From an uncultured delta proteobacterium (GTDB lineage: Bacteria > Desulfobacterota > Syntrophobacteria > BM002), in assembly GCA_963712115.1 (NCBI GenBank), contig CAVQGX010000037.1:64001-128000 (forward strand): a stretch of DNA of 64,000 bases, written 5' to 3'. Under the pieces are notes generated by a model. It did no database searches. It was not told where the DNA came from and saw only the letters and a list, made by a program, of their open reading frames with translations. The translations under genes and the position numbers were made by a program. Shown here piece by piece: positions 8,895 through 36,335 of the stretch (the stretch's first letter is position 1; every line of letters starts with the position of its first letter).

Positions 8895-8999
8895 AAAAGC
8901 GACTGGTCGCTGATGTTGCCAGCCGCTTTTTATTCTTTGGCGTCCCCAAGAGTACTCCCGGTTTACCCCAGTTTTTGTCTGCGTCTCAGGCAACACCAA
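8895..8999 (+). mobile_element. att-like junction, copy 1 (hairpin, antisense tRNA-Glu 3' end, conserved tail; truncated)
   Basis: Hairpin 8895-8930, then TGGCGTCCCCAAGAGTACTCCCGGTTTACCCCAGTTTTTGTCTGCGTCTCAGGCAACAC from 8938; homologous to 24124, 28916 and 36199. Confidence 0.7.
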
Positions 9000-9012
9000 C
9001 AACAAAAACAAC

Positions 9013-10179
9013 CTAGAAAAAGGCTGAAATCTTCGTTATATCCTCTCCCAAAATAAGAGTGTGAATATCATGGGTTCCCTCGTAGGTGTAGAGGCTCTCC
9101 AGGTTACACATGTGGCGAATAATCCCATACTCGATACTAATACCGTAGGCACCCAGCATGTTTCTGGCCACCCGGGCAATTTTCAGCGCTTCATTGACAT
9201 TGTTCATTTTGGCCATGGAAATATGTTGGTGTCGCCACTTGCCGGCATCTTTCAGACGTCCCACCTGCAAAGCAAGCAACTGCATTTTAGAAATCTCGGT
9301 CAACATCTTCACCAATTTTTTTTGAGTCAACTGGAAGGATGCGATGGGCTTTCCAAACTGAATCCGCTCTTTGGAATAACGTAAGGCCCTGTCGTAGCAA
9401 TCCATGGCCGCTCCAATGGCGCCCCAGGAAATGCCGTAGCGAGCTTCGTTCAAGCACATCAAGGCGCACTTGAGCCCGTTTGCTTCAGGTAGCCTATTGG
9501 ACTCGGGGATTCGTACATCTTCAAAAATGAGCCCCGAGGTAACCGAAGCCCGCAAGGACATTTTTTTCTCGATGGGAAAGGTGAGGAAGCCTTTCGCTCC
9601 TTTTTCCACCAGGAACCCTTTGATCCCTTCGTCAGTTCTGGCCCACACCACAGCCACATCCGCGATATCGCCGTTGGTGATCCAGAGCTTTGAGCCATTG
9701 ATGACCCAGCCTTTCCCATCTTTCTTTGCCCTGGTTTTCATGCCGGCAGGGTCTGAACCATGATCCGGTTCGGTGAGGCCGAAACAACCTATCTTTTCGC
9801 CTGCGGCCATTCTGGGAAGCCAGTATTCTTTCTGCTCCTCGGAGCCAAAGGAATGAATGGGGTACATAACGAGGGAGGACTGCACCGACATGAGACTTCT
9901 GAGACCACTGTCTCCTCGTTCCAGTTCCTGACAGGCGAGGCCGTATTGGACGTTGTTGGTGCCGGCACACCCATAGCCATGGAGTTTCATCCCGAAAAGG
10001 CCCAGTTCCCCAACCTTGGGGATTATCTCCATGGGAAAGGTGGCCTTTTCAAAGTGATCATCTATGAGGGGCATGAACTTCTCATCCACGAACCTTCTCA
10101 CCGTATCCCGAGTAATCTTCTCTTCGTCGCTGAGAAGGTCATCTAGACGCAGAAAATCCAGACCTTGAAATTTGGACAC
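9013..10179 (-). CDS. gcdH: Glutaryl-CoA dehydrogenase-like acyl-CoA dehydrogenase
   Basis: ERGDSGLRS..SVQSSLVM, GCFGLTEPDHGSDP and TYEGTHDIHTLILG motifs. Confidence 0.85.
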   Translation of the reverse strand: MSKFQGLDFLRLDDLLSDEEKITRDTVRRFVDEKFMPLIDDHFEKATFPMEIIPKVGELGLFGMKLHGYGCAGTNNVQYGLACQELERGDSGLRSLMSVQSSLVMYPIHSFGSEEQKEYWLPRMAAGEKIGCFGLTEPDHGSDPAGMKTRAKKDGKGWVINGSKLWITNGDIADVAVVWARTDEGIKGFLVEKGAKGFLTFPIEKKMSLRASVTSGLIFEDVRIPESNRLPEANGLKCALMCLNEARYGISWGAIGAAMDCYDRALRYSKERIQFGKPIASFQLTQKKLVKMLTEISKMQLLALQVGRLKDAGKWRHQHISMAKMNNVNEALKIARVARNMLGAYGISIEYGIIRHMCNLESLYTYEGTHDIHTLILGEDITKISAFF

Positions 10180-10208
10180 TGTTCACTCCAAGTTTGAGAT
10201 GATTTAAT

Positions 10209-11447
10209 TTACACCACACCCTTTTCCCTTAACTGCTTAATCTGTTCGGGACTGAATCCTAACTGGTCCTGCAAAATTTCGTCGGTGTGCTCACCGAGCA
10301 GTGGTGGGTGGAGCATGGTCTTGCAGGGGGTCTTGGAAAGCTTCATCGGCGAAGCAACTAACTTGACGGTACCAGCGGTCGGGTGCGGTACTTCTTCGAT
10401 CATGGCTCGCGCTTTGACCTGGGGGTCGGAAAAGACTCTGTCCAGGGTGTTGATGGGACCACAGGGAATTCCTGCCTCTTCAAGCAGATGCAGCCACTCC
10501 TCTGCTTTTTTGCTGAGCATCCTCGCCGCCACAATTGGGACCAGTTCTGTGCGATTTTCAACCCTCGCCGCATTTGTGGCAAACTTTGGATCCTGGGCCA
10601 GTCCTTCTAGACCTGCCAACTTACAGAAGGCTCGCCACTGCTGATCGTTACCAACAGCCAGTGCAACGTAGGATGTCTTTGTTTTGAAGGGCTCGTATGG
10701 CACAATATTTGGATGAGCATTACCATGCCGCACGGGATTCTTCCCTGATACCAGGTAGTTGCTTCCGACATTGGCAAGCCAGGCCATCACAGAGTCGAGA
10801 AGAGAAATGTCAATGTATTGCCCTTCCCCGGACTTTTCTCGGTGGCGCAGAGCAGCCAGAATAGCACTAGAGGCAAACAGCCCGGCGGTGATGTCCACTA
10901 TCGCCACTCCAACCTTCATCGGTGGGCCGTCTGGCTCACCGGTAAAGCTCATCACCCCGCCCATTCCCTGGATCATGAAATCATAGCCCGGTTTGTCTTT
11001 GTACGGTCCATTTTGACCAAATCCCGTAATGGAACAGTAAATCAGACCAGGGTTCTCTTGGCTGAGTTCTCTGTATCCCAGCCCTGTATTATCCAGGGTG
11101 CCGACCTTAAAATTTTCTATCAAGATATCACTCTGCTTTGACAGAGATTTTATGATCTTCACACCCTCAGGGGTTTTCATGTTTGCGGTTAAACTCTTCT
11201 TGTTGCGGTTTACGCACAAATAATACGCGCTCTCCCCTGCAACAAAAGGCGGTCCCCAGTGCCTTGTGTCGTCACCTCCATGGGGGCGTTCCACTTTGAT
11301 GACTTCGGCACCAAGGTCTCCGAGCATCATGGTACAATATGGGCCGGCTAGGACACGGGAAAGATCGAGCACCTTGATACCCTCTAGAGGTAGCTTAGCG
11401 GTTCCTGCTTTCATCAAAACTCCATTTGGTTGGGTTAAAGCCGACAT
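10209..11447 (-). CDS. Family III CoA-transferase (CaiB/BaiF), probably glutarate-activating; start may be 11414
   Basis: DLSRVLAGPYCTMMLGDLGAEVIKVE, NRNKKS, PGYD motifs; adjacent to gcdH. Confidence 0.9.
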   Translation of the reverse strand: MSALTQPNGVLMKAGTAKLPLEGIKVLDLSRVLAGPYCTMMLGDLGAEVIKVERPHGGDDTRHWGPPFVAGESAYYLCVNRNKKSLTANMKTPEGVKIIKSLSKQSDILIENFKVGTLDNTGLGYRELSQENPGLIYCSITGFGQNGPYKDKPGYDFMIQGMGGVMSFTGEPDGPPMKVGVAIVDITAGLFASSAILAALRHREKSGEGQYIDISLLDSVMAWLANVGSNYLVSGKNPVRHGNAHPNIVPYEPFKTKTSYVALAVGNDQQWRAFCKLAGLEGLAQDPKFATNAARVENRTELVPIVAARMLSKKAEEWLHLLEEAGIPCGPINTLDRVFSDPQVKARAMIEEVPHPTAGTVKLVASPMKLSKTPCKTMLHPPLLGEHTDEILQDQLGFSPEQIKQLREKGVV

Positions 11448-11699
11448 CCTTTTTACGAGGGTCGGAAATAGGTGCCTGAGATTTTGCTGTGAGAACTGAA
11501 AAAAGAATCAGGGTTCAGTGACATAATAATGTTTGCAACTATACCAAGAAACAAGATTGAAGTATACTTTGCAGAAACTTCCAAGGGTATCATTGGGTGT
11601 GATCGGGACGGATCTCGGTTTCAATATTTTTCGTTTTCAATATTGTGTGTTATCGAATAAGTAGCTGTCTTCTTTTAAGAAACGACAGGAGGGTGATCC

Positions 11700-12047
11700 A
11701 TGAAGGTTGTCCGTATGAGCAGCGCAGAGAGTTACGAGCCTGAAAAGGACTGGAAACGTGTGAGTCTCTGCAATGAAAAAGACATTTCCATTGAGCACTT
11801 CATCAAGCCGCCACATCATGCTTCGCCGATGCACGATCATCCGAACGCGCAGGTTCTGGTCGTTCTCAAAGGCAAACTGGCAATCGTTACTGATGGGAGC
11901 GGAGAGCAGGTGCTTGGAGAGGGCGATGCTGCCTATATCCCGGAGAATGAAGCGCATGTGGTGAAGAACCTGCTCGATGTCCCCTCGATCGGCCTCGACA
12001 TATTTGTTCCTGGACGGTCCTTTGATTTCTGGTTGAAGCGAAAGTAG
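11700..12047 (+). CDS. Cupin-domain protein
   Basis: PMHDHPNAQ...GD..YIP.NEAH cupin motifs; AGGAGG RBS. Confidence 0.85.
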   Translation: MKVVRMSSAESYEPEKDWKRVSLCNEKDISIEHFIKPPHHASPMHDHPNAQVLVVLKGKLAIVTDGSGEQVLGEGDAAYIPENEAHVVKNLLDVPSIGLDIFVPGRSFDFWLKRK

Positions 12048-12126
12048 TCATAGCGTCCATCCGGCCGCCCGGGGTAAGCAAACTGAGTCAGCAGCAGAAA
12101 GCGGGCAATCTAGAAGGTGGGATAGC

Positions 12127-12190
12127 AGCCAACCCTTCGCTGCAGCCGTCCCTTAGACAAGCTTAGGGCGCCCGAGCTCGGCCGTTATAT
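12127..12190 (+). mobile_element. Integron attC-like site
   Basis: AGCCAAC-CCTTCGCTGCAGCCG...CGCCCGAGCTCGGCC-GTTATAT; ~64 bp imperfect palindrome with an internal CCCT..AGGG stem. Confidence 0.7.
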
Positions 12191-12209
12191 TTCAGGAGGA
12201 TATCAAAAG

Positions 12210-12818
12210 ATGGAAATAAGTCCCGAAAGCAGATCAAACCAGGATATATATAAGATTCTTATTGGCACAGTATTACCTCGGCCAATTGCCTGGGTCTCAA
12301 CCGTTGATACCTCGGGTAACATAAACCTTGCTCCCTTCTCCTTCTTCACGGTTGCAAGTGTTAACCCGCCGATTCTATGCTTCTCTCCACTTCTGCAAGA
12401 AAATTCAATAGAGAAAGACACTCTGGTAAACATCAAACAGACTTCTGAATTTGTGGTGAACATTGTGAGCTACGGTCTGGCCGAGGCAATGAATCGTACA
12501 AGTGGTCCATATCCGTCCGAGGTCAATGAGTTTGATGTAGCTGGAGTTGCCGCGAAGCAATCGACAATTGTTAAGCCTCCCTGTGTTGCAGACTCACTGG
12601 TTAATTTTGAGTGCAAACTTCACCAGATCATTTCTTTCGGCTCAGAGCCAAGGGCCGGGAATCTGGTCTTGGGCCGAGTTTGTAACATTCATATTCATCC
12701 AGACATTGTTAGAAATGGTGAAGTAGACTGTAAGTCCTTGGACGCCATTGGAAGGTTGGGGGGCAATATGTACACTACCATCAGGGATTGCTTCGAGATG
12801 GAAAGACCTGCAATATAA
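12210..12818 (+). CDS. Flavin reductase-like (FMN-binding) protein, probable gene cassette
   Basis: PRPIAWVST..NLAPFSFF..KDTLVNI..GRLGGNMY; the stop codon lies within ATATAAC (12813-12819). Confidence 0.88.
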   Translation: MEISPESRSNQDIYKILIGTVLPRPIAWVSTVDTSGNINLAPFSFFTVASVNPPILCFSPLLQENSIEKDTLVNIKQTSEFVVNIVSYGLAEAMNRTSGPYPSEVNEFDVAGVAAKQSTIVKPPCVADSLVNFECKLHQIISFGSEPRAGNLVLGRVCNIHIHPDIVRNGEVDCKSLDAIGRLGGNMYTTIRDCFEMERPAI

Positions 12819-13295
12819 CCACCCGCTGCGGTCGAACACGGCAAACAACATCCTACTCCCCCCTAATGTTGAGTGCGTCGATCTCCCCACGACTACACCT
12901 GCTTGACACACCAGGACCTTTCATCCTATCATCCTAATATTTATTGCCCTTATCTGGAGCGAGTACTCATCAGTTATCAATCTCCCTCTCATCTTCAGTT
13001 GGACATGTTGAACTTACTATTTGATTAATTGCCACAATGTGGTACTAGATTATTCATAAAAAGAGCGGTTGCAGGCAATTAATCTCTTTTTCTTCTGTTG
13101 CCTCCGAAAGCGGCTATGTATTTTATCCTTTTAAATTAATATGTTGGATGTTTTCAGCAAGGAGAGTATGTCTGATTCCACAATGCTTCGATGAATTAGA
13201 CACATTCAAAGACAGCAGCTTGGCGTCAGGAAGTTGTGCGGCATTTTGAAGTTTCTCATTGACCCAGAACATTTGTACTCAAGGAGGGCAGAATT

Positions 13296-14540
13296 ATGTC
13301 GAGAAAATTAAGAGTTCTAATCGGACTATTAGTAGCTGTCGCTGCCGCTGGTTTCGTTTTTGCGAGTCCGGCCGTCGCCAAGGTTGAGGGCGACACCATT
13401 GTTTTTGGCGCAGCGGTTTCTTTCACCGGGAAATACTCAACCAACGGCAAGCACACCAAGAACGGTTATGATCTTGCCGTAAAGCGGATTAACGAGATGG
13501 GCGGCGTCAAGGTGGGCAATAAGACTTATAAAATCAAGGTCCAATACTACGACGACGAATCAACACCGGCCCGCGCCGGACAGTTGGCCGACCGGCTGAT
13601 CAAGCAGGATGGGATCAAATTCATCCTGGGGCCATACGGTTCCGGTCCGACCAAAGGCATGGCACCGATAACCGAAAAGTACAAGATTCCCATGGTCGAG
13701 GGGAACGGTGCTTCCCGCGCCCTTTTTAACAAAGGCTACCGGTACCTGTTCGCCGTACTTACAACTTCAGAACAGTACTTGGCAGAATCCATCAACTTGC
13801 TCGCAGAAGAGTTCAAGAAGGATGGCAGAGATCCAAGCACTGCTACAGTGGCCATTGCGGTCGAAAACGACCCATTCTCCATGGACATCCGCGCCGGGGT
13901 TTTGGATGATGCCAAGAGGTGGGGCATGAAAGTCGTCATCGACGACAAATTGCCCAAAGAGCTGACCGACATGACCGCCACCCTGACCAAGGTCAAGGCC
14001 TTGAGGCCCGATGCCCTCATCGTATCAGGGCACTCCAAGGGTGCAGCCCTGGCTGTCCGTCAGACGGCCCAGATGAAGGTGGATGTGCCCATGCTGGCCA
14101 CCACCCATTGCGATGCAGCGGACGTGATTGGTAAGTTCGGAGGAGATGCCAATTACACCCTGTGCGCCACCCAGTGGGACCCAACCATGACATACAAGGA
14201 TGACTGGTTCGGCTTTGCCGGAGACTATGCCGACAGATTCGAGAAAGAATACGGCTACGCACCGCCTTACCAGGCCGCTGAGTCGACCGCATCCGTGCTC
14301 GTTTATGTGGATGCCCTGCAACGAGCCGGCACATTCGACACCGAGAAGGTACGCGACGCCATAGCTGCGACGAACCTTCAGACCTTCTACGGCTGGGTCA
14401 AGTTCGATGAAACCGGTAAAAACATCGCCAAACCCATCGTGATGTGGCAGGTTCAGAAGGGCAAATACATACCCGTGGCTCCCAGCAAATTTGCCGCAGG
14501 CCAGGTGATCTTTCCGAAACCTCTGTGGAGAGACCGCTAA
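13296..14540 (+). CDS. Branched-chain-amino-acid-type ABC transporter substrate-binding protein
   Basis: Signal peptide; YYDDESTP, LGPYGSG periplasmic-binding-protein motifs. Confidence 0.92.
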   Translation: MSRKLRVLIGLLVAVAAAGFVFASPAVAKVEGDTIVFGAAVSFTGKYSTNGKHTKNGYDLAVKRINEMGGVKVGNKTYKIKVQYYDDESTPARAGQLADRLIKQDGIKFILGPYGSGPTKGMAPITEKYKIPMVEGNGASRALFNKGYRYLFAVLTTSEQYLAESINLLAEEFKKDGRDPSTATVAIAVENDPFSMDIRAGVLDDAKRWGMKVVIDDKLPKELTDMTATLTKVKALRPDALIVSGHSKGAALAVRQTAQMKVDVPMLATTHCDAADVIGKFGGDANYTLCATQWDPTMTYKDDWFGFAGDYADRFEKEYGYAPPYQAAESTASVLVYVDALQRAGTFDTEKVRDAIAATNLQTFYGWVKFDETGKNIAKPIVMWQVQKGKYIPVAPSKFAAGQVIFPKPLWRDR

Positions 14541-14556
14541 ACCCATAAAGCAACCC

Positions 14557-14594
14557 GCCCGCCCTAGCGATAATCCTAGGGCGGGCCTTCTTAT
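14557..14594 (+). terminator. Intercistronic hairpin after the binding-protein gene
   Basis: GCCCGCCCTAG...CTAGGGCGGGC followed by a T-rich tract. Confidence 0.6.
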
Positions 14595-14599
14595 TCGCT

Positions 14600-15499
14600 A
14601 TGGATAATCTTCAAATTTTATTCTCTGCACCGATATTTGCTTTGCAGCTGCTCATTGATGGTCTTCTCATCGGCGCCATCTTTGCGCTGGCAGCCTATGG
14701 CATGGCGCTGGTGTGGGGTGTTATGAAGATCATAAACTTCGCCCAAGGGGAGTTTGTCATCTTGGGGGGATATATGGCCTTCGCCTTCAGCAAAGCAGGA
14801 GTCCACCCCTTCTTCACCGTGCCGCTGTCAACGGTGTCTCTGTACATTGCCGGCTGGTTGTTGTACCGCCTTGTCATCTTCAGAATCGTGGAAGAGGACC
14901 TCTTCATCTCGATTCTAGCCACCTTTGGCATCAGCATACTCATGCAGCAGCTCATGAACCAGGTGTTCACTGCCGACGTTCAGACCGTCGACTCCGGCCT
15001 CGGCACCTGGTTTCTCTTTGACGGCAACGTGACAGTGTTGCAAATCAAGGTCGTCAGCTTTGCCAGCGCCCTGGTACTGGGGGTCTGCCTTGGGCTGTTC
15101 ATGAAAAAGACCCGGCTCGGGCAAACCATCCGTGCTACCGCCCAGAACGCCCGTGCGGCCCGCATTCTGGGTATCGATACAGACAAGGTATATTGCACGA
15201 CCTTTGCATTGAACGCGGCTATCTGCGGCGCCTGCGGGGCCTTGGTCCTTATGACCTGGGTGATTCAACCGTTCATGGGGCTTGCCTATACGATCCGTTC
15301 ATTCATGATTGTCATCATTGCCGGCATCGGCAATGTGGCCGGGGTCGTGCTAGCAGGTCTGGGGCTCGGTGCTGCCGAAAACTTTGCCGGTTTTGTTCTG
15401 GGCACCGAGTTTCAGGCCGCCTTTATCTTTTCATTGCTGGTCGTCATCCTGGTCTGGCGTAACTTTACCCTCAGACTTAAACGAAGGTATCTCCATTGA
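14600..15499 (+). CDS. livH: ABC permease, LivH-like
   Basis: INFAQGEF, TRLGQTIRATAQN..AARILGI motifs; multiple TM segments. Confidence 0.88.
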   Translation: MDNLQILFSAPIFALQLLIDGLLIGAIFALAAYGMALVWGVMKIINFAQGEFVILGGYMAFAFSKAGVHPFFTVPLSTVSLYIAGWLLYRLVIFRIVEEDLFISILATFGISILMQQLMNQVFTADVQTVDSGLGTWFLFDGNVTVLQIKVVSFASALVLGVCLGLFMKKTRLGQTIRATAQNARAARILGIDTDKVYCTTFALNAAICGACGALVLMTWVIQPFMGLAYTIRSFMIVIIAGIGNVAGVVLAGLGLGAAENFAGFVLGTEFQAAFIFSLLVVILVWRNFTLRLKRRYLH

Positions 15500-16557
15500 A
15501 CACCGTTGAACGAAATCTCGCTCTTTACGGCTCCATCCTCATTGTTTCCCTGGCCGCCCCCTGGGTGTTCCCCGCCTACCGCACCCAGTTGGCGTTCTTG
15601 TGGATAATGGTGCTGTTTGCCCTTACCTGGGACCTGGTAGGCGGGCAGATGGGATATACATCCTTTGGGAATATCGTGTTTTTCGGCATCGGTATGTACG
15701 TGACCGCGGTGATCCAACGGAATCTACATTTTGACATCGAAGAGTACGTTCATGTGGCGGGCGCAGTTGATATGTTGCAGCCCGGTGAATATTTGAGCGG
15801 ACTTTTTCTGGGCATGGGTGCAAGCGCCATTGTTGCCGTGATCGTTGCGGTGGTCCTCGGCCTCTGTATCCTGGCCATGGGGATGCGCGGTCAATATTTC
15901 GGCATTTGTACCCTTGGTCTCGGGGTCGCCGCCGGCGAACTTGCCAGCGGCTGGGAATACATCGGTGCCGGATCGGGGATGGTAACGCCGGTGTTTCCCG
16001 AAAGATTGGGTGAGCGCGGAATCTTCTTCTATTACATTTTTTTCATCCTGGCCGGGATGGTATTCCTGACCTTGAAATGGCTCTATGCGGGTCGCTTCGG
16101 CCTTGCTATCAACGCCATCCGAGACGATGAGGACAAGGCCGAAGCCATGGGCATCCGCACCACCCGGTATAAAATGACAGCCTGGTGCATTTCCGGTTTC
16201 TTCCTTGCAATTGCAGGAGGCGCTGCCGGCCATCTGGTGGGATTCATCGATCCTACGGAAGTGGCTTTTGCCGGCGCAACTTTCGGCGTTTGGATGATCT
16301 TGATGGCAATCCTCGGCGGCAAGGGAACCCTTTGGGGACCGGTGATCGGGGCGGTGATTTTTCATATTACCCAGGAACTGTTCTGGACATACCTTTTTGG
16401 CTGGCAGCGCGTGGCAATGGGCGCCCTTATCGTCGGTATCGTAGTCTTTTTTCCCCAAGGAATCATCGGCTGGATCCGCGACCGCTGGCCGGAACGCTTT
16501 GGCCATCGAGTAGAGGAAAGTACCGTTTCCAGTTCTTCCGGGGGAGGTGGGGCATGA
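15496..16557 (+). CDS. livM: ABC permease, LivM-like
   Basis: GYTSFG..FFGIG, RFGLAINAIRDDEDKAEAMGI, GGKGTLWGP. Confidence 0.88.
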   Translation: MNTVERNLALYGSILIVSLAAPWVFPAYRTQLAFLWIMVLFALTWDLVGGQMGYTSFGNIVFFGIGMYVTAVIQRNLHFDIEEYVHVAGAVDMLQPGEYLSGLFLGMGASAIVAVIVAVVLGLCILAMGMRGQYFGICTLGLGVAAGELASGWEYIGAGSGMVTPVFPERLGERGIFFYYIFFILAGMVFLTLKWLYAGRFGLAINAIRDDEDKAEAMGIRTTRYKMTAWCISGFFLAIAGGAAGHLVGFIDPTEVAFAGATFGVWMILMAILGGKGTLWGPVIGAVIFHITQELFWTYLFGWQRVAMGALIVGIVVFFPQGIIGWIRDRWPERFGHRVEESTVSSSSGGGGA

Positions 16558-17300
16558 CCGGACAGCAGCTGATGGTGGAAGGTGTCACCAAAAGGTTCGG
16601 TGGTGTCGTTGCCAATGACAACATCAGTCTCTCTGTGCCTGAGGGTAGCATCGTCGGCCTCATCGGCCCCAATGGATCCGGCAAAACCACACTGTTCAAC
16701 TCTATTGTTGGCTACCACCCCATCGACCAGGGCTCCATCCGCTTTGAAGGCCGCGAAATCTCAGGCCTGAGGGTGACTGAGATCGCGCGGTTGGGGATGC
16801 TGAGAACCTTCCAGCAAACGCGAGTTTACGCCAAGATGACCTGCGTGCAAAACATGCAGATCAGCGTGCCCCGGCAAAACGAGGGTTTTGGCGCCATGTT
16901 CTCTAAGTCTCATCCGAAGATCATGAAGAAGGCCGAGAGCTTGCTGGCCTTTGTCGGTCTTTATGCCAAACGGTACCTCCTGGCAGGAGATCTTTCCTTC
17001 GGCCAGCAGAAACTTCTCGAGTTCGCCATGGCACTTATGAACGAGCCCAAGCTGCTTCTTCTGGACGAGCCCACGGCGGGAATCAATCCGACCCTGATCA
17101 ACGGCCTGATCGACCGCTTGAAACGCTCAAATGCAGACCTCGGTATCACGCTTTTTATTATCGAGCATAACATGCCCGTTATCATGGACCTTGCCGAACA
17201 TATCTACTGTTTGGCCCATGGAGAACTCCTGGCCGAAGGCCCGGCCGATGAGATCCGAGACGATCAGCGGGTGATCGACGCTTATCTCGGGGCGAACTGA
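16554..17300 (+). CDS. livG: ABC ATPase, LivG-like
   Basis: GPNGSGKTT, LLLDEPTAG, V.DAYLG; ATG at 16554 overlaps the livM stop. Confidence 0.9.
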   Translation: MTGQQLMVEGVTKRFGGVVANDNISLSVPEGSIVGLIGPNGSGKTTLFNSIVGYHPIDQGSIRFEGREISGLRVTEIARLGMLRTFQQTRVYAKMTCVQNMQISVPRQNEGFGAMFSKSHPKIMKKAESLLAFVGLYAKRYLLAGDLSFGQQKLLEFAMALMNEPKLLLLDEPTAGINPTLINGLIDRLKRSNADLGITLFIIEHNMPVIMDLAEHIYCLAHGELLAEGPADEIRDDQRVIDAYLGAN

Positions 17301-18178
17301 TGGATGAAAAGAAAGAACAGAGAGCCGGAAAAGGCGACATCGGCGACCTCAGCCTCGACGATTTTGACACGGTGCTTTCGGTTGACGAAGTGGCGCATCA
17401 AGCCGAGAAGCTGGCTGCCGAGGCACCAAGCCGGCAGCGTTTGAGCGAACTGGTGGGGAAGGAACCGCTGCTTACCATTGAAGGCCTAAGGGCCGGCTAC
17501 GGCAAGATGCAGATACTGCATGAGTTTGATCTGCAGGTAGGGGTGGAGCAGTCTCTTTGTATCATCGGGCCCAATGGCGCCGGAAAGTCTACGGTGCTGC
17601 ACTCCATCTACGGATTCACCAACATTATGGGTGGGAACATCAAAATGGGAGGTAGCGACATTACCGGTATGAGTCCCAACCAAAAGCTCAAAAGAGCCGG
17701 TATCGCCTACATTCTCCAGGACAACTCGGTGTTTCCGGACATGACGGTAGAGGAAAACATGTTGATGGGCGGTTTCCTCAAAGACAAGCCGAGCCAGGCA
17801 TGGGAGGCTGCTGAAAACGTGCTTCAGAAGTATACCCGCCTGAGTGAAAGACGAAAGCAAAAGGCCGGTGTTCTCTCCGGCGGTGAGCGGCGCCTCCTCG
17901 AGATCTCCCGGGCGCTGATTATGGAACCGGAGGTTCTGTTAGTAGATGAGCCCTCCATCGGACTCGAGCCTCGTTTCATCCAGATGGTCTTCGAGATTCT
18001 GGATGATCTGCAGAATACGGAAGGCAAGACCATTGTCATGGTCGAGCAGAACGCGAAGAAAGGCCTTGAGTTCGCCGACATCGGCTACGTGCTGGTCTCG
18101 GGCCATCTGGCCATGGCCGGAACCGGCGATGAACTCCTTGAGAACCCGGAAGTTGGCCGGTTGTTTCTGGGCGCCTAA
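17300..18178 (+). CDS. livF: ABC ATPase, LivF-like, with acidic N-terminal extension
   Basis: GPNGAGKST, LSGGERR, DEPSIGL, VEQN. Confidence 0.9.
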   Translation: MDEKKEQRAGKGDIGDLSLDDFDTVLSVDEVAHQAEKLAAEAPSRQRLSELVGKEPLLTIEGLRAGYGKMQILHEFDLQVGVEQSLCIIGPNGAGKSTVLHSIYGFTNIMGGNIKMGGSDITGMSPNQKLKRAGIAYILQDNSVFPDMTVEENMLMGGFLKDKPSQAWEAAENVLQKYTRLSERRKQKAGVLSGGERRLLEISRALIMEPEVLLVDEPSIGLEPRFIQMVFEILDDLQNTEGKTIVMVEQNAKKGLEFADIGYVLVSGHLAMAGTGDELLENPEVGRLFLGA

Positions 18179-18214
18179 CCTGGATAACTCACCACACTCG
18201 TCTATTTGCAAGGA

Positions 18215-19273: not shown

Positions 19274-19276
19274 GCT

Positions 19277-25938: not shown

Positions 25939-26094
25939 AGGCTATTCAAAGATCAGCTTTACGACTGGCTCTCCCTCAATCCTTCACAAGGTCATCTCTA
26001 TTTTTGGGTAAGCGGAAGTCAACTATTTAATCTTGTTGGGATAAAAGCGAAAATAGTCAATAAAGATTGGGTAACATCTTACGAGGCGATCTAG

Positions 26095-27681: not shown

Positions 27682-27903
27682 GTGAAAGAGCAGTGCGAAA
27701 ATTGTAGGTTTTGGAGGAGACCTGAAGCTCAAGCAGAAAAGGCCGCTGGTAATTGTCGTCGCTATGCCCCTAGACCTTGGGGCTGCGGCTATGTTGGGGT
27801 GGACATTCGTGAAGATGAATCTATTGAGAGAAAACTCTATTCTATTGCATTGTGGCCGACCACCCACGGCCATGAATGGTGTGGTGAGTGGCAGAAAAAA
27901 TAG
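27682..27903 (+). CDS. Small Cys-rich hypothetical protein (phage-like motif)
   Basis: CENCRFW..GNCRRYAP..WP....EWCGEW; AGGAGG RBS. Confidence 0.65.
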   Translation: MKEQCENCRFWRRPEAQAEKAAGNCRRYAPRPWGCGYVGVDIREDESIERKLYSIALWPTTHGHEWCGEWQKK

Positions 27904-27929
27904 TGGGTTTATCGTGAGCGGAAGATAGC

Positions 27930-28703
27930 ATGCCCTACTCCATTGTTTTCATTCTTATACTGGCGGTCCTTTTTCTGGCCAGTGCAATTCGGATTCTCAA
28001 GGAATACGAGCGGGGAGTCATTTTCCGTCTAGGAAGGGTCATTGGTGCCAAAGGACCGGGGCTTATCATTCTCATCCCTGTGGTAGATCGGATGGTGAAG
28101 GTCAGCCTGCGGTTGGTGGCCATGGACGTACCTCCTCAGGATGTGATCACCCGAGATAACGTATCCGTGAAGGTCAATGCAGTGATCTATTTCCGGGTGA
28201 TGGATTCCATCAAGGCGGTGGTGGAGGTGGAAAATTATCTCTACGCCACCTCCCAGATGGCCCAAACCACCCTGCGCAGTGTTTGCGGGCAGGGGGAGCT
28301 GGATGAACTGCTCTCTGAACGTGAAAAGATCAATAGGCAGCTCCAGGAGATTTTGGATGAGCACACCGACCCCTGGGGCATTAAGGTGAGCACTGTTGAG
28401 GTCAAGCACATCGATCTGCCCCACGATATGCAACGAGCCATGGCCCGCCAGGCTGAAGCCGAGCGGGAGCGCCGTGCCATGGTTATCAACGCAGAGGGGG
28501 AGCACCAGGCTGCGAATCGCCTGGCCGAAGCGGCCCGGATCATCTCCGACCATCCCATTGCACTTCAGCTCCGCTATTTACAGACCCTGCGAGAGGTCGC
28601 TGCGCAGAGCAAATCCAGCACGCTCTTTCCCATTCCCATTGATTTGTTCGAACCGTTTCTGCAGTTAGAGGAAAACGTGAAAAAAGAAAGCCCTGGCAGC
28701 TGA
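27930..28703 (+). CDS. SPFH/stomatin (slipin) family protein
   Basis: [44 protein letters not shown]. Confidence 0.93.
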
Positions 28704-28739
28704 TTGTGCGCCAGCCACCCCCGGTGCTCACTTGGTAGT

Positions 28740-28819
28740 CGTCCCCAAGGGGATTCCCTTCGTGTAAGGAACTTGTCCTGAGCGAGAGCGAAGGAGGGCA
28801 AGCTCACTTCCCTGTTGCC
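28740..28819 (-). pseudogene. tRNA-Glu 3'-half remnant interrupted in the T-loop
   Basis: CGTCCCCAAGGGGATT [54 nt insert] CCCTGTTGCC matches the antisense acceptor stem/T-arm of tRNA-Glu; no D arm or anticodon arm seen. Confidence 0.5.
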
Positions 28820-28873
28820 CGCTCTCCGAGCGGGAGGCCTACGAGTTCAAATCCGCCGGCACAATGCAAAAAG

Positions 28874-29064
28874 AAGAGGGCCAACTAAAATTACAGTTGA
28901 CCCTCTTTTTTTACATGGCGTCCCCAAGGCTACTACCCGTTTACCCGTGTTTTTATCTAATACTCAGAGAACACCACAGTTTTGTTGAATTTTACTCATC
29001 ACGGAGACATCAGAAGCCAATGCTGGCCAAGTTTAGTTATTGGCAAGCTATCTGGAATTCTTGA
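28874..29064 (+). mobile_element. att-like junction, copy 3
   Basis: Strong hairpin AAGAGGGCCAACT/AGTTGACCCTCTT, then TGGCGTCCCCAAGGCTACTACCCGTTTACCCG from 28916; open frame 28915..29064. Confidence 0.7.
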
Positions 29065-29477
29065 TTAGAGCACCTTACCACTGCACTTTGGGTATTGCTA
29101 TCTGGCCTATGCTATTCGTAAGCAATTTTGCGAAATAAAGAGAAAACAAAAGAAAAGATAAGAACTGCTTTTGCAGACAAACTGTAGATAACTTCGTTAT
29201 CACACGGATATTGCAGCATATTAAAAGCGGATAAAGAAGCTTAATTATTCCCGTGAGTTCCAGCTGCGCGGTTAAACTTCTTTTGTTATCTCCTTGGGTT
29301 AGCTTTTGTGTATAACCCGAAATACCACATTCACAATTCAAGCCCTGCTGCATTTGACCAGTTTTTAGATGCTAAGGTAAAAAGCACATTAGAGATTACT
29401 CCACAGTGGTGCATGGGAAGAAGCATCTGAAAACTTTTGGCAACTCCGGCTTTTTCTGACGTCAATAGGAGGGCGCC

Positions 29478-29777
29478 ATGAGTAAAGGTCGGTACATTGC
29501 TTGGGTGGTGGATTCCGGTCGAAGTCCTAAGTGGCTTTTGAGGGAGTACCAAAACAAAGTCAAGCGGGTCATCCAGATGCGCCGAGTCTTAGAAAGACCT
29601 AATTTAAAAGACAGGAACACTGGTCGGCCCCACAGTCCAACGGCGATAAATATCTACAGGCGAAGCCTTCCCATTCGAGAAAGGGATCTCGTGGAGTGTC
29701 GAGAGGCCATCCGTTGGTTGGCCCGCCGGGGGCTGCTCCGAAAGATCGATCGCATTGCCTGTGAGGTTTCCGAATGA
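29478..29777 (+). CDS. Hypothetical basic protein
   Basis: 99 aa ORF with AGGAGG RBS; no family recognised. Confidence 0.55.
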   Translation: MSKGRYIAWVVDSGRSPKWLLREYQNKVKRVIQMRRVLERPNLKDRNTGRPHSPTAINIYRRSLPIRERDLVECREAIRWLARRGLLRKIDRIACEVSE

Positions 29778-29986
29778 TCCATTACGGAAGACCATGACTA
29801 TGGTTTGCCGAACAGGCCCAAATCGTCTTCGATATCCCACCTGCTTTTCTGTTGATTTGTCGTCTTAGGTACCTACTGATTTAATCCTACCGAGAGAGGG
29901 GATGCTGCTTATGCCCATACGGTCCTGCAGCTACTGGAACAGTTTGCTAGAAATCGTTCATTTTTCTTGAGGGGGGTGTTACTGCT

Positions 29987-30193
29987 TTGACTGAGGTAGA
30001 TATCACGGGGCTTGTTATTGTGGAGTGTCCAAAATGTCAGAAACGCGTTTGGCTGTTATCTTATGGTGGTTATGATGAAAACGCTGCACATTACTGCAAG
30101 CATTGTGATTACACATTTGCCACCGATTTAAGAGGGAAGCTCTTAGGTCACGTAGAGTGGGCAAAGCGGTCTTTGGAAAAAATTCACGCATAA
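29987..30193 (+). CDS. Small zinc-ribbon protein
   Basis: CPKC...CKHC; G-rich RBS. Confidence 0.5.
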   Translation: MTEVDITGLVIVECPKCQKRVWLLSYGGYDENAAHYCKHCDYTFATDLRGKLLGHVEWAKRSLEKIHA

Positions 30194-30343
30194 GAAGTTC
30201 CATAGTCAGACAGCTCGTCTGGTAACAAACTGGAGTAATTACCAGGGAACATCTGAAGATACACAAAGGATTCTGATTCAGTATCTTACACACACAGATT
30301 GAGTCCTCACACTCCGCATAACTTCTTGATAAAGGAGGGAGTC

Positions 30344-30613
30344 TTGGCTCGACAGGTTAGACTGATGATCCATGGCCGTGAATTTACTGTACACACCCTG
30401 GCCGATGAGACGCATTTGGAAACAGTGGCCCACTATGTAAACTCGAAATGTCAGGAAGCAGAAAGGAGCCTTCTTTCCAAGTCACAGACAAGCATCTTTG
30501 CCCTAGCTGCTCTGAACATAGCGAGTGATTATTTGCAGTTGAAGGAATGTTATAAACTTATGCTTGAGCGGATTGAGGAAAATCAGAAAAAATTGGCATC
30601 TTTTGCATTTTGA
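30344..30613 (+). CDS. zapA: Cell division protein ZapA-like
   Basis: VRLMIHGREFTV..HLETVAHYVN..LAALNIASDY; AAGGAGG before TTG 30344. Confidence 0.85.
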   Translation: MARQVRLMIHGREFTVHTLADETHLETVAHYVNSKCQEAERSLLSKSQTSIFALAALNIASDYLQLKECYKLMLERIEENQKKLASFAF

Positions 30614-30695
30614 ACAGAGAAGCTTAAATGCAAGATCGGATAAAGCCAGTTCTTGAAATTGGCAGTAGTGGCCGCTGATAATCTCCATATTTGGA

Positions 30696-31724
30696 TCAAA
30701 TCAGAACCTGCTCCAGAATATCAATGGAATCAAGAACTTTGCCAGCGCCCATCACCACACTGGCAAGTGGATCATTTGCAATGCTTACGGGAAGTCCGGT
30801 CTCCTCTATTAGAAGCCTGTCAAGATTCTTTAAAAGTGCACCGCCTCCGGCAAGAACAATACCTGTATCTACAATATCTCCGGCCAATTCGGGCGGTACT
30901 TGCTCAAGAGCAGTCTTGACTGTCTGAACTATATTTTCAAGCAGTTCACTAAGGGCCTTGTTCACATCGGCCGAGTCAACCTCGACAATCTTTGGAATCC
31001 CTGAGACAAGATCACGCCCCTTGACCTCCATTTGCTGCACATTATGGTTTGAGATCGCATTACCGATGGTGGTCTTGATTTGTTCTGCAGAACTTTCTCC
31101 TATCAGGAGATTGTACTTCTGCTTGATATGCTGAAGAATAGCTTCGTCCATGAGGTTGCCGCCTACGCGAACCGACTTGCTGTACACCACTCCAGCCAGA
31201 GCGATTACCGCCACCTCTGTCGTGCCTCCGCCAATATCGACTATCATATTACCAATTGGCTCTGTTACAGGTAATCCGGCACCTATAGCAGCAGCCATGG
31301 GTTCTTCAATGAAAAAGACTTCACGGGCACCAGCTGCGCCTGCTGCCTCTCGCACTGCTCGTTTCTCCACCATGGTAATGCCCGAAGGCACGCAGACGAT
31401 GACGCGCGCTTTTGCCAATCGGCGATTATTCGCTTTTCTAATAAAATGCCGTAGCATCGCCTCGGTTACATCGAAATCGGCGATCACCCCATCTTTCATT
31501 GGACGACTGGCAACGATATTCCCAGGGGTGCGGCCCAACATCTCTTTAGCCTCTTTGCCCACTGCCAAGACTTTATTGGCTCCTCTTCCATCTCTGCGAA
31601 CAGCAACAACAGAAGGCTCGTTAAGTACAACACCTTTTCCTTTCACATACACAAGCGTGTTTGCTGTACCCAGGTCAATTGCAAGATCTTCGGAAAATCT
31701 TCGCCAAATGTGATTCAAAACCAT
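30696..31724 (-). CDS. mreB: Rod shape-determining actin MreB (orphan paralogue 1)
   Basis: [36 protein letters not shown]. Confidence 0.95.
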
Positions 31725-31985
31725 AAGATCTTATCTCCTGCCCGTTTAGGCCGAATTACCATGGCTTCGATCGAAAGAGTATAAAAGTTCATGGAGGTGA
31801 AGCAAAATAATTGCAAGGCGAGGGCAAAGTCAAGTCATTAGGACACTTTTGAGGGAAAAAATGAGGTGCCCTTGTACCTGATAAATGTGCAATGCTTCGG
31901 GTTTGCAACTGAAAAGGAAATCGTTATATTGGTGTGACTGAAGCTTAAGGATTCAATTGTGATTGCTTGGAAGCAAGGAGAACAA

Positions 31986-32579
31986 ATGCGGAATTTTCGA
32001 AGAGGACTTCAAACAACAAAAAGGTACTGGCCCATTGCATTCATAGTACTTTCATCAAACTTGTTGCTGAGTGTTACAATCCAGGCCAAGACATTTTATG
32101 TATCAGATACGACACTGACGGCTAATGTGCGGACTGGACCCAGCTTTGAAAACCGCATCATTGCAATGCTTCAATCTGGGACGAAGGTAACTCTGGTGAG
32201 GGTAGAAGGCGGTTGGTCCGAAGTAGCCTTGGATGATGGACGCAGAGGCTGGATTCCTAAAAATTATCTATCCGATCGCCCTCCCTGGCGCGATACTGCT
32301 CAGAAACTGGCATCTGAAAACCAGAGTCTTCAAACCCAAGTCGCCAGTCTTGAGCAAAGCCAACAAAGTCTATCGCACGAGAACAACAAACTGAGGACTG
32401 AACTTCAGAACAGTTCGCAAAAGCTCGATCAACTGCAAAGAGCCAACAAAAATATGAAGACTTCTTACAATCTTCGCTGGTTTTTGGGTGGTGCAGGAGT
32501 CTTATTGGCCGGTTGGATACTTGGTTTTTGGATGGGTCGCATGAGACGACGTTCATATTCAGAACGATATAGATTGTAG
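31986..32579 (+). CDS. TIGR04211/YgiM-like SH3 protein with coiled coil and C-terminal TM
   Basis: Signal peptide, YVSD..VRTGPS..GWI SH3b domain, coiled coil, WFLGGAGVLLAG anchor. Confidence 0.85.
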   Translation: MRNFRRGLQTTKRYWPIAFIVLSSNLLLSVTIQAKTFYVSDTTLTANVRTGPSFENRIIAMLQSGTKVTLVRVEGGWSEVALDDGRRGWIPKNYLSDRPPWRDTAQKLASENQSLQTQVASLEQSQQSLSHENNKLRTELQNSSQKLDQLQRANKNMKTSYNLRWFLGGAGVLLAGWILGFWMGRMRRRSYSERYRL

Positions 32580-32826
32580 GAACGTAATCAAAAGTTTATT
32601 GATATCCTAAAATTTTCACGCTGCTTAACAGAGCACGTGTATTGCCATACAGAAACTTGATGATCTGGATGCCGCACTATATGTTCATCCAGTTCCTCGT
32701 AAAGTGGGTTTTGTTCTTGCTTCCAGACCGCAAGGTTGACTTTCCGGCATTTCAGAATACTCTCCTATAAAGCACTGGCTGAGTGGATTGCAGCTTCTGT
32801 AGCCTATAACAACCAACTGCAGACAG

Positions 32827-33876
<1,050 letters not shown>

Positions 33877-34637
33877 TTAATGCAAAGAAACAAAATGCAA
33901 GCCGATAAATAGCTTGCAAGCCAATTGGTCAAGGGTGTCAACACGATAGTCTTTGGATGAAAATAACATGCCAGGTTGAGCAAATCTAAATTTCCTTAAT
34001 TTTTCATATTCTTAGCAAATTCATAAGCTTTGACTAAACCTAAAAGGATGATTGAAATCATCCAAAACGGTCAATCGGCTATGAAAAAGTGTACGCTTCG
34101 AGCTAGTCTAACTGTGTTTCGACAATTAGGTGAGACGCTTAAGGTTAAGCTCACCAGTATGACAAGTTCCAATGTGGCACGAATCGATTCAGCGAATTTG
34201 GCTTTCTGATGTTAAATGCGATCTCCTATTGACCTGGTCGGATATTTGCTTACTCGATCTTATTTCAAGTCACATCTTGTTTTGATATCTTGAATTTCAC
34301 TGATGTCCACATACTGGCAAGATATCTTTAATCCTTACCCGGAAGTATCTACGCGAGCATTTTGTGGTTTAATTTCTGTGCGGGGAAGTTTGGAAATAAA
34401 GAGCTTTGCTTGCCCCTTTACCTCTGGAGCCAGCCAATTAACCCCAAAAATGGTGGTTTTTCGTAGTTGCATAGATTGGCTAATTAGTTTATAGTTCTCA
34501 ACTTTAAATGTTCAGGTATTGTGTGGCTTTGTGCATCTTTTATTTAGCAAGTGTAATACTAGTCGTTACGTAGAAAGAATATACCTTAAAGCTACTAATT
34601 CAAATTGCAATCGAAAGGAAACCGAGGAGGGTGAGAA

Positions 34638-34925
34638 ATGTCCAAACCAAAGCAGAAAAAGAAGGCACAGAACAAAAGGATTACCTTCAAGCTGGAGGCA
34701 TCAGGAGCCAAAGAGGCCATCTTGGTAGGAGACTTTAACAGTTGGGATGCCAAGAAGCACATAATGAAAAGGGACAACAGAGGGAGGTGGAGCAAGATTG
34801 TCACTCTGTCCCCTGGAAGGTACGAGTATAAGTTTCTTGTAGATGGGGAATGGCAGACTGATCCCAGCAATGACCAAGTGGTCCCCAACTCCTTTGGTAG
34901 CCTCAATAATTTCTTGAATGTTTAA
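34638..34925 (+). CDS. Stand-alone CBM48/AMPK-beta-like glycogen-binding protein
   Basis: LVGDFNSW..PGRYEYKFLVDGEWQTDP..NSFG..NN. Confidence 0.88.
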   Translation: MSKPKQKKKAQNKRITFKLEASGAKEAILVGDFNSWDAKKHIMKRDNRGRWSKIVTLSPGRYEYKFLVDGEWQTDPSNDQVVPNSFGSLNNFLNV

Positions 34926-34967
34926 ATAGCCACGTAGATTGTGGACTGAGCATGAGTTAAATTAAAT

Positions 34968-35012
34968 GACCCCTACTGGTCATTGTACCTCCGGTCAGTG
35001 GGGGCTTTTTTA
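34968..35012 (+). terminator. Intrinsic terminator
   Basis: CCCCTACTGG..CAGTGGGGG stem followed by a T run. Confidence 0.6.
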
Positions 35013-35118
35013 TTGCCAGTTCTCCCCTTATTCTTTTAATCTGATGGCAGCTAAGGACTTTCTAAAAAAGTATAAGAGAAACTCTCCGAGAAATAGTCCC
35101 TTATAGCGAGGGCTAAAG

Positions 35119-35718
35119 ATGGAAAAAGAGGTCCGCCAATATCGAAGAGTCAAAGTCAGTTGGCCTGTCACCATTCAGACCGAAGAAGGCACTATTGAAC
35201 GGGCTACATACAACATAAGTCCCGATGGAGCCTTCATCCGTGGTTTGTCGCCCCTTGAGCTGCATGAAGTCGTTGATATGGTTATTAGTGGCCCTGACCA
35301 TTCCATAACGGTCAAAGCAAGAGTGGTCTGGACGAGTAGCCAAGTGCCCCCTAAAAAGGATATGCCACGTGGTGTGGGTGTCGAGTTCATCAATATTTCT
35401 GATGAGCACCGAGAAATAATCTCTTCTCTAGTTGCAGCGGAAGTAGAGTCCTCAGGCTCGGACGAAGATGAAAAGGAGCAGGTTTTAATAAGAGAACAGA
35501 GCTTAATAGAGGAGCGGCCAGTAGAGGACGAGAAAGAAAACATGAATAAACCTACTCTAGGGCCACCTAAGAGGTGTCCAGACGGTCACATGCATATTTC
35601 CTGGTCTACGGGCGATGACCATATTTTCTGTTGGGACTGCAACCGGAGATACCCACTACTTGCCTGTTTCAGACCACCAGAGCGAGACCTTTCTGACTCT
35701 GAGAAGTCCAATGACTAG
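35119..35718 (+). CDS. PilZ-domain protein with C-terminal Zn-finger-like motif
   Basis: RQYRR (RxxxR), NISPDG, ARVVW, GVGVEF; CPDGH...CWDC. Confidence 0.82.
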   Translation: MEKEVRQYRRVKVSWPVTIQTEEGTIERATYNISPDGAFIRGLSPLELHEVVDMVISGPDHSITVKARVVWTSSQVPPKKDMPRGVGVEFINISDEHREIISSLVAAEVESSGSDEDEKEQVLIREQSLIEERPVEDEKENMNKPTLGPPKRCPDGHMHISWSTGDDHIFCWDCNRRYPLLACFRPPERDLSDSEKSND

Positions 35719-35857
35719 CCTAGACCCTGACGAAATCAAACGAGTAAAAGTCCACCCTATCAAATGCCCCAGGTGCAAGCTCACGGTAATGGTCAAGCCA
35801 GACGATAAAGTGTGTCCTGCTTGTGGGGGTAATCTGCCGAAACCTGCAAAGCTTTGA
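35711..35857 (+). CDS. Small zinc-ribbon protein
   Basis: CPRC..CPACG; overlaps the PilZ gene stop. Confidence 0.5.
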   Translation: MTSLDPDEIKRVKVHPIKCPRCKLTVMVKPDDKVCPACGGNLPKPAKL

Positions 35858-36151
35858 AAGAAAACTATATTTTGTGCCAGATTGGAAACCAGGCGAGTGT
35901 GAATTAAGGGATGTTATCTCCAGTCCGCGACCCTTCAGTCGAATCGAGCATACAAACTCTCCCCGGTCCACATATGCTCTTCAGACCTTGAGCCGACCTC
36001 GACTCAAGGTATTGGAAAGGTATATGGAGTCCTTATTATCAGAGGATTCTTGCTATCTGTTTTTCATATCTTCACCAATGCAACCAATTATCTGAAGCTG
36101 GAAGTGCAGTTCCCTCCCAATATCGAACAATTTCAGACCAAATCAAAAATT

Positions 36152-36335
36152 AAGGGCTTAGCACTTATTGGCTAAGCTCTCAATATTATTGCAAGAAGTG
36201 GCGTCACCAAGGGTACTCTCTGTTTACCCGTGTTTTTTTCTATGTCTAAGAGAGCACAATGATTTTATAAAGTTTTATCCTGCAAAGAGACACCGGAGGC
36301 CATCGCTACTCTTGATAAAAAGGGGTTCAGTATAA
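36152..36335 (+). mobile_element. att-like junction, copy 4
   Basis: Hairpin GGGCTTAGC/GCTAAGCTC, then TGGCGTCACCAAGGGTACTCTCTGTTTACCCG from 36199; open frame 36198..36335. Confidence 0.7.

Follow-up and report, generated by a model that had tools for sequence, protein, structure and literature searches.

What has placed one short sequence four times, always in the same orientation, within a single stretch of an uncultured Desulfobacterota genome, and do the copies mark the edges of DNA that was inserted there? The stretch, which we call the window, covers 64,000 nt (C37:64001-128000) of a metagenome-assembled genome of 70 contigs and 4.9 Mb (94.4% complete), in which contig C37 measures 190 kb. 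An earlier note on this DNA had claimed four junctions of identical orientation, each built on the 3' end of tRNA-Glu. The explanation that we favor, with moderate confidence, is that the array represents junction scars of serial site-specific integration into the 3' end of tRNA-Glu(UUC), and that the DNA between the scars is a tandem row of small islands or cassettes of 0.2–15 kb. As scars we read the four copies, a fifth degenerate fragment, and two tail remnants that lack a core.

Four Window Sites Match the 3' End of the tRNA-Glu(UUC) of the Same Genome

A pattern search of the window returned the 14-nt core TGGCGTCMCCAAGR at positions 8938, 24124, 28916, and 36199, in every case on the plus strand and with 0 mismatches, and thus confirmed the four junctions. 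The number of copies expected by chance in the window is 0.11, and four copies were reached in 0 of 100 shuffles. In the entire 4.9-Mb assembly the exact core occurs at five sites, namely the four window copies and C38:81258-81271. The latter site lies in the sole tRNA-Glu(UUC) gene of the genome, which lies at C38:81194-81271, 78 nt from the contig end, and whose 3' end (...CCCCTTGGGGACGCCA) is the reverse complement of the core; the left edge of the core falls exactly on the CCA end of the tRNA. When read on the minus strand, core 2 (24124-24138) is identical to the 3' end of the tRNA at 15 of 15 nt, and core 1 (8938-8952), core 3 (28916-28930), and core 4 (36199-36213; C to A at position 8) agree with the last 15 nt of the tRNA at 14 of 15 nt each. 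The direct repeat therefore corresponds to the 3' part of the presumed target tRNA at four sites (14–15 of 15 nt), and it does so again at a degenerate 20-nt fragment described below. Because the fifth copy of the core is the 3' end of the sole tRNA-Glu(UUC), the premise that the core is a tRNA end is valid for the organism's own tRNA; a different tRNA end, which the earlier note had named as fatal to its proposal, is not what the genome contains. ARAGORN detected no tRNA in the window, and none at any copy of the conserved tail that adjoins the core.

Each Copy Joins a Terminator Flank, a Core, and a Conserved Tail

To the right of the core lies conserved sequence that we named the T1 tail. 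Each unit consists of a flank with a terminator in the tRNA sense, a core of 15–20 nt identical to the tRNA, and a T1 tail of ~170–235 nt, together ~400–450 bp, the size of an attachment site of the attP kind. The window copies align well past the core, and a T1 profile (43 distinct copies) matched the window at 24124-24367, 28916-29069, 36199-36368, and 8938-8999; since the last match extends no further, copy 1 is truncated at ~60 nt. The shared tail of 60–110 bp that had been proposed is real, but the conserved unit is longer than that. Across the 43 copies the first ~40 nt of T1 are at least 90% conserved, after which conservation declines and is mostly gone beyond ~115 nt except within subtypes. 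The motif GTTT(T)ACCC appears twice in the T1 consensus, ~50 nt apart and both times in well-conserved columns, and this pair could, speculatively, be arm-type protein-binding sites. Some tails open with GGGGATTCCCC, which is the T arm minus a few loop bases, and therefore the tRNA homology extends into the T arm.

A terminator-like hairpin was called beside the core on the minus strand, i.e., in the tRNA sense, at all four copies, in agreement with the earlier description, and on the plus strand as well at copy 4 only. At copy 1 the hairpin (8898-8911) lies directly downstream of the core in the tRNA sense, in a flank that loosely belongs to type A, and the truncated tail (8953-8999) is followed by a minus-strand acyl-CoA dehydrogenase gene that ends at 9013. 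Copy 2 has a type D hairpin (24085-24109), again downstream in the tRNA sense, and a full-length tail of the alpha subtype (~230 nt; 24139-24367, from profile and alignment) whose conserved unit ends near 24358 in several unrelated contexts. Copy 3 joins a type B hairpin of 14 pairs (28874-28907, from the terminator call) to a tail at 28931-29069, and copy 4 joins a type C flank (36021-36198), which includes a terminator at 36153-36180 (called 36177-36156), to a tail at 36214-36368, both tails being supported by alignment and profile; all of these features are assigned to the minus strand. The type C flank is a discrete conserved unit of ~180–195 nt that occurs at many loci with unrelated sequence beyond it, and over 95 nt it shares 85% identity with what follows the real tRNA-Glu gene on C38.

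Besides the four copies, the window contains a fifth, degenerate tRNA-Glu 3' fragment, TAGTCGTCCCCAAGGGGATT (28737-28755, minus strand; ~20 nt), which retains T-loop bases of the tRNA. It is succeeded by a segment unrelated to T1 (X segment; 28756-28873, minus strand), which forms a 0.18-kb mini-block and adjoins the type B terminator of copy 3. The same arrangement of fragment and X segment recurs in L013, L043, and L011, and in relatives the X segment is found between a tRNA-Glu terminator and another 20-nt tRNA-Glu fragment. Core-less T1 remnants are present at 36683-36762 (minus strand; profile positions 60-139) and at C37:55386-55449 (plus-strand profile match), 8.6 kb left of the window. 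A motif search for the type C flank and the X segment elsewhere in the genome yielded only the window copy, or none. The T1 profile has six matches in the 4.9-Mb genome, all on the plus strand of C37 and within 45 kb, which differs from the many copies in both orientations that would characterize a miniature inverted-repeat transposable element (MITE) or a repetitive extragenic palindrome (REP); the genome-wide scatter that would have spoken for such an element was not seen, the window pieces being co-oriented and confined to those 45 kb.

Homology to Relatives Breaks at the Core

As the earlier note had anticipated, none of the relatives is syntenic across both sides of a window copy, and homology stops within 0 to ~95 nt of the core. 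To the left of copy 2, G005 and G017 match the window at 93% identity, up to a point 92 nt past the core start; G012 matches only the right flank, from 11 nt into the core; and in G007 the match is limited to the stomatin gene on the left side of copy 3. The G+C content falls from 0.546 to 0.439 at copy 2, the only copy with such a drop, and remains at 0.36–0.50 to the window end.

Two pairs of loci compare an intact tRNA-Glu with a T1 junction, both pairs coming from relatives and not from the window's own four copies. In G005 a type A terminator lies downstream of the intact tRNA-Glu, and next comes a gene homologous to C37:56612-57955; G015 carries the same gene and type A terminator, but joined to a core and T1 tail, and the two sequences diverge right after TGGCGTCCCCAAGGG. 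Likewise, the tRNA-Glu of G003 is followed by a flank, Z, and contig L059 presents T1, a core, and a flank Z that is 99% identical. Judged from their sequences, both pairs look like attB versus attR, as would be expected for an empty and an occupied site. Terminators of types A and C also occur downstream of intact tRNA-Glu genes in different species of relatives, and a type B terminator follows a 45-nt tRNA-Glu 3' fragment in L066; such sharing between tRNA-Glu genes and scars is expected if the tRNA acquires a fresh terminator with every integration.

At least four further tail families abut the same core in relatives, including one next to a 45-nt fragment that starts in the anticodon loop. 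Because several tail families adjoin one core, the site has been used by several kinds of DNA, and the proposal of a single element family has to be given up.

Of the seven tRNA-Glu(UUC) genes found in the genus, four have a contig end no more than 250 nt away on their downstream side, which fits a strain-variable site. In G010 (contig C52; L043/L086, 80-300) and G011 (L083, 1507-1661), the last 20 nt of tRNA-Glu, the terminator, and a flank of ~85 nt are tandemly duplicated directly downstream of the tRNA gene, giving a mini-block of ~140 nt. Just upstream of tRNA-Glu, at ~11135-11190 of L036 (a locus from C38), we noticed short tandem motifs of the TAGTGC type and an element of ~32 nt, copies of which are present on dozens of other contigs.

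T1 Is Confined to One Genus and Its Fragments Are Co-oriented

BLAST searches detected T1 in 10 of 17 other genomes of the same uncultured Desulfobacterota genus and in 0 of 23 genomes from other genera of the family and class. An exact 23-mer was found in six stretches among 185,579 species representatives, all of them metagenome-assembled genomes of this genus, and a degenerate pattern matched 22 metagenome contigs. To quantify orientation we used 17 contigs with at least two tRNA-Glu 3' fragments, of which two were near-duplicates; the fragments were co-oriented in 15 of the 15 distinct contigs (21 fragments beyond the first). Their spacing within a contig was mostly 1.8–7 kb, with extremes of ~140–260 nt (mini-blocks) and 15.2 kb (block 1 of the window). 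In several assemblies, contigs break at tRNA-Glu and at T1 copies.

Cassettes without Recombinase Genes Lie between Cores

The clearest unit in relatives is a 1.65-kb cassette that encodes a 229-amino acid protein of unknown type and a DUF6036 nucleotidyltransferase. Copies that begin at a T1 core occur in at least four left contexts, and there are at least four right contexts; the homology stops at a single position, no more than ~20 nt from another degenerate core in L013 and L074. An AbiEi/AbiEii cassette in L059 is bounded likewise. L023 and L068 have the tail and a right anchor of 95% identity in common, and the cargo between these differs. Blocks 2 and 3 of the window, described below, and the cassettes in L013, L059, and L074 are all bounded by cores and devoid of a recombinase gene, as in a cis-mobilizable element (CIME), which is flanked by att sites and lacks genes for recombination and transfer. 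Other T1 neighbors include genes for Csp, Usp, MscS, TreT/OtsA, a family 20 glycosyltransferase, MsrAB, a PLD-family protein, and histidine kinases; neither the identity nor the orientation of the neighboring genes is constant. The promoter region of the DUF6036 cassette (L013, ~2480-2560; L023, ~1770-1840) contains two to four copies of the palindrome TTGTATA(N4-5)TATACAA, likely the autoregulatory operator of a toxin-antitoxin-like pair.

Searches for a Recombinase and for Linkage to the tRNA

The earlier note had reported that no integrase adjoins any copy, and we likewise found none at the window copies. It had further predicted an intact minus-strand tRNA-Glu with an integrase to the right; the 89 kb of C37 beyond copy 4 contain neither, and the tRNA-Glu sits instead at the end of another contig, C38. 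The ends of C37 and C38 have no exact overlap of 15–200 nt with any contig end, and no contig end matches the flank types. As the assembly is fragmented, a link to the tRNA may still exist beyond the contig ends. No PF00589 gene lies beside the array or the tRNA-Lys/tRNA-Glu locus. Neither an intact target tRNA at the array end nor a recombinase within an element was observed.

We then used a profile made from nine of the genome's integrases on 4814 open reading frames (ORFs) from all collected loci, a search that recovered all known genome loci as a control. It returned only a 270-amino acid ORF 7.6 kb from T1 (L063) and two short C-terminal remnants (L023 and L068). The two remnants (L023, 1797-2253; L068, 526-1153) belong to near-identical loci in which the C-terminal part of a tyrosine recombinase ends 28 nt upstream of tRNA-Val(CAC), and T1-bearing cargo, different in each locus, stands in place of the front part. 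Of public sequencing runs, 24 were listed, all as assembled contigs, and four were compared with the region (three DNA, one RNA). The run contigs contained only short-sided joints (e.g., 24358 to 29056, one side of which covers 31 nt) and joints that pass through the palindromic terminator, and we counted these neither for nor against excision or transcription.

A Model of Serial Integration and Its Alternatives

If the array arose by serial integration, each incoming circular element would have carried an attP composed of the T1 tail as P arm (~170–235 nt), a core of 15–20 nt identical to the tRNA from its 3' end into the T arm, and, as P' arm, a terminator flank of 50–195 nt brought in by the element; the flanks that are seen today could be P' or B' arms. 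Recombination in the core would have rebuilt the tRNA with a new terminator and left the displaced 3' fragment, together with the previous terminator, at the far junction. Every later arrival would have pushed older elements outward, producing a co-oriented stack in which internal junctions read tail-core-flank. The units may have lost their recombinase genes later, or may have had none from the start; some tails are trimmed. We read the array in its present form as mostly inert or decayed, as resembling CIMEs, and as lying apart from the tRNA in this assembly.

Several results weigh against this explanation. The 190-kb contig C37 has no intact tRNA-Glu, not even in the 89 kb past copy 4. None of the 12 PF00589 matches of the genome is on C37 or C38, no serine recombinase was detected in the genome (PF00239, PF07508), and an intact integrase lies beside none of the 43 distinct T1 copies. 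G007, with five T1 matches, has only two recombinase types, both of which are present in all 18 genomes of the genus, and G009, with three T1 matches, has these two types and one fragment of 109 amino acids. Two exact-pattern scans of viral contigs and a distant blastn search with flank, core, and tail located the site on no phage, plasmid, or viral contig. The tails are cut at differing points (~5 nt in G005, and 60, 68, 75, and 95 nt elsewhere), and in the complete genome G002 the same csp-cysZ-kinase genes are preceded by a tail of which only the distal half is left, with the core missing, so deletion or homologous recombination has had a part in forming the junctions too. The blocks hold genes of housekeeping appearance (mreB, zapA), and block 1 shows no shift in G+C. 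Lastly, pure fossil status gives no explanation for the conservation of the first ~40 nt of T1.

That conservation speaks for a platform that is still active. In this alternative, which we regard as rather unlikely, the system would resemble an integron, with the tRNA-Glu(UUC) 3' end as the capture or primary site and the ~40-nt core plus proximal T1 as the cassette site. A recombinase encoded elsewhere, possibly a housekeeping one, would act in trans to excise recombinase-less cassettes of 1.6–7 kb with toxin-antitoxin, stress, and envelope genes and to re-insert them, also after exchange between species. It would account for the 1.65-kb cassette, which has multiple left and right contexts yet no integrase at any T1 copy, for the loss of similarity beyond the conserved ~40 nt, for the small size of the cassettes and their frequent toxin-antitoxin-like or stress genes, for the contig breaks at tRNA-Glu and T1 in several assemblies, and for the exchange of cargo between a common tail and anchor in L023 and L068. 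No site-linked recombinase was found in any genome searched, however, and G007 and G009 possess little beyond the two genus-wide types. The orthologous copy 2 of G005 and G017, in which ~6 changes fall within the first 40 nt and the tail is truncated, looks like a decaying site. In addition, T1 does not fold like an integron attC site (z-scores of -1.07 to +0.23 for three copies on both strands), no intI-like gene adjoins the array, the tail lacks conserved pairing, and homologous recombination between repeats of 200–400 nt could shuffle the units without a dedicated enzyme.

Serial integration has also to be set against two explanations that dispense with it. A tRNA-derived dispersed repeat with a cellular role (a minus-strand small RNA, an element of 3' untranslated regions (UTRs), or a terminator or insulator) that spread by duplication and homologous recombination seems improbable to us. 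The tRNA-sense terminator on every unit, the frequent position downstream of minus-strand genes as in a 3' UTR, the strong conservation just upstream of the terminator, the complete lack of a nearby integrase, and the often stress-related neighbors (Csp, Usp, MscS, TreT/OtsA, MsrAB) would suit such a repeat. Against it, the window has no Rfam match at gathering thresholds, and RNAalifold, run on 21 of 26 copies after five truncated ones were left out, gave no consensus structure, with only 7 pairs in the minus sense and 3 in the plus sense and essentially no covariation (covariation terms of 0.03 and 0.1). As the fold z-scores are near 0 as well, we rejected a structured small RNA or a tRNA-like RNA gene. 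No promoter-like site was found around copies 1 and 3 or inside the T1 tail of copies 2 and 4, the RNA contigs compared with the region revealed nothing specific, the neighboring genes are inconsistent in identity and orientation, and the tRNA-versus-tail pairs and the other tail families would be left unexplained. A peptide encoded across the core was rejected from the alignment, in which open frames vary in length and indels are not multiples of three. Less probable still, in our judgment, is that segmental duplication and RecA-dependent recombination of the region downstream of tRNA-Glu produced everything, with no mobile element or site-specific recombinase. The tandem partial duplications of tRNA end and terminator in G010 and G011, ~140 nt apart, breakpoints that do not all fall at the core, and the failure to find a nearby recombinase are in keeping with this idea. 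On the other hand, the tail is unrelated to the tRNA body or to the region upstream of it, and the cargo looks foreign, with lower G+C and toxin-antitoxin modules. In 43 copies, and likewise in four other tail families, the block of identity has one edge exactly at the CCA end and its other edge within the T arm, which is the pattern of site-specific integration.

Comparison with Known Systems

Chromosomal integrons have co-oriented short sites and small cassettes without recombinase genes, many of them toxin-antitoxin modules. The T1 arrays share with them the co-oriented short sites between small recombinase-less cassettes and the many toxin-antitoxin genes, but they differ in that no intI-like gene lies beside the array or the tRNA, in that the sites are tRNA-derived and lack an attC-like fold, and in that the cassettes are larger and have their own promoters and terminators. 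In Streptococcus, Pavlovic et al. are said to have described in 2004 how att-flanked units without integration or transfer genes stack by site-specific accretion beside related elements, and a related element that supplies the integrase is reportedly known there. The T1-bounded units are similar to these CIMEs in being att-flanked and in lacking integration and transfer genes; an integrase-supplying relative was identified in our searches at no locus.

The closest of the descriptions cited here is that of Dehalococcoides, where, according to the sections of the paper cited here, tandem islands are bounded by the ssrA RNA gene or by a direct repeat of ~20 bp of its 3' end, a conserved motif that does not align with the gene lies beside the repeat, and the insertion point was inferred in the T-loop region (McMurdie et al. 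2011, PMC3146451). The same sections count 16 islands with a serine-recombinase module and 15 without an integration module, the latter discussed as possible CIMEs (PMC3146451). So far as these sections describe them, those islands resemble ours in their tandem units, 3'-end repeats, adjacent conserved motif, insertion in the T-loop region, and disrupted synteny at the boundaries. They differ in that the target is tmRNA and the array lies within 100 kb of the gene, whereas tRNA-Glu(UUC) is the target here and the assembly does not link the array to it; the units here are also smaller (0.2–15 kb), contain no intact recombinase, and have a far longer conserved arm (~170–235 nt). Prochlorococcus tycheposons, in the portions of the preprint cited here, integrate successively at one tRNA, so that nothing but a partial tRNA copy stands between neighboring elements; the islands also contain scattered degenerate remnants and additional partial tRNAs, and older material is displaced away from the tRNA (Hackl et al., bioRxiv 10.1101/2020.12.28.424599). 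Their discovery started from integrases, with 937 elements that carry one, and PCR demonstrated their excision (bioRxiv 10.1101/2020.12.28.424599). On this description, stacking, partial tRNAs, degenerate remnants, and cargo for defense or adaptation are common to both systems, whereas no integrase-bearing parent was found for the T1 units, which are known from sequence alone.

The locus marks a hotspot of genome plasticity in an uncultured sediment genus of Desulfobacterota and explains the assembly breaks at tRNA-Glu. The combination of the tRNA-Glu 3' end and the T1 tail offers a simple sequence tag for strain-variable cargo (toxin-antitoxin and stress genes) in metagenomes. If the units do move in trans, they would form a tRNA gene-based system for exchanging cassettes, independent of integrons.

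Blocks and Cargo in the Window

The earlier note had divided the window into blocks of about 15, 4.7, 7, and >27 kb. The five tRNA fragments yield intervals of 15.2, 4.6, 0.18, and 7.3 kb instead, and nothing shows the exopolysaccharide stretch of >27 kb to be an element. Block 1 (9000-24084; 15.2 kb core to core) encodes an acyl-CoA dehydrogenase, a CoA-transferase, and other proteins, the last one being an SLC12-type permease, and its G+C (0.48–0.555) is not distinct from that of the left flank. Two plus-strand ORFs in this block (15496-16557 and 16185-17300) overlap by ~370 nt in different frames, which could reflect a frameshifted gene or a miscalled start.

Block 2 (24368-28736; 4.6 kb), in which G+C goes down to 0.44–0.46, encodes a cold-shock protein, a CysZ/EI24-like protein, a PAS histidine kinase, and an SPFH/stomatin protein. 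The cold-shock gene (24663-24863) has its own promoter-like site at 24508-24536. We considered and rejected the T1 tail as the csp promoter, given this better site, paralogous csp loci without a tail, and the many tails that face convergent genes. The csp region (24492-24925, including ~170 nt upstream) recurs with 77–89% identity on at least seven other contigs of the genome, and csp is therefore a multi-copy family here.

Block 3 (29070-36020; 7.3 kb core to core) contains small ORFs followed by genes for ZapA, MreB, an SH3 protein, a second MreB, and PilZ, and an ORF of 90 amino acids. The two mreB genes (30696-31724 and 32827-33873) are 1.1 kb apart, with the SH3-domain gene between them and zapA upstream; at least six separate matches to the mreB stretches of the window were found in G011, of the same genus, an unusually large number of paralogs. 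To the right of copy 4, in a gene-poor stretch of low G+C (0.406), lies an element of ~60–100 nt (37329-37411) with well over 100 copies of 78–97% identity on most contigs of the genome and in both orientations; from its copy number, its spread over contigs, and its occurrence in both orientations, it looks like a MITE or a REP-type element.

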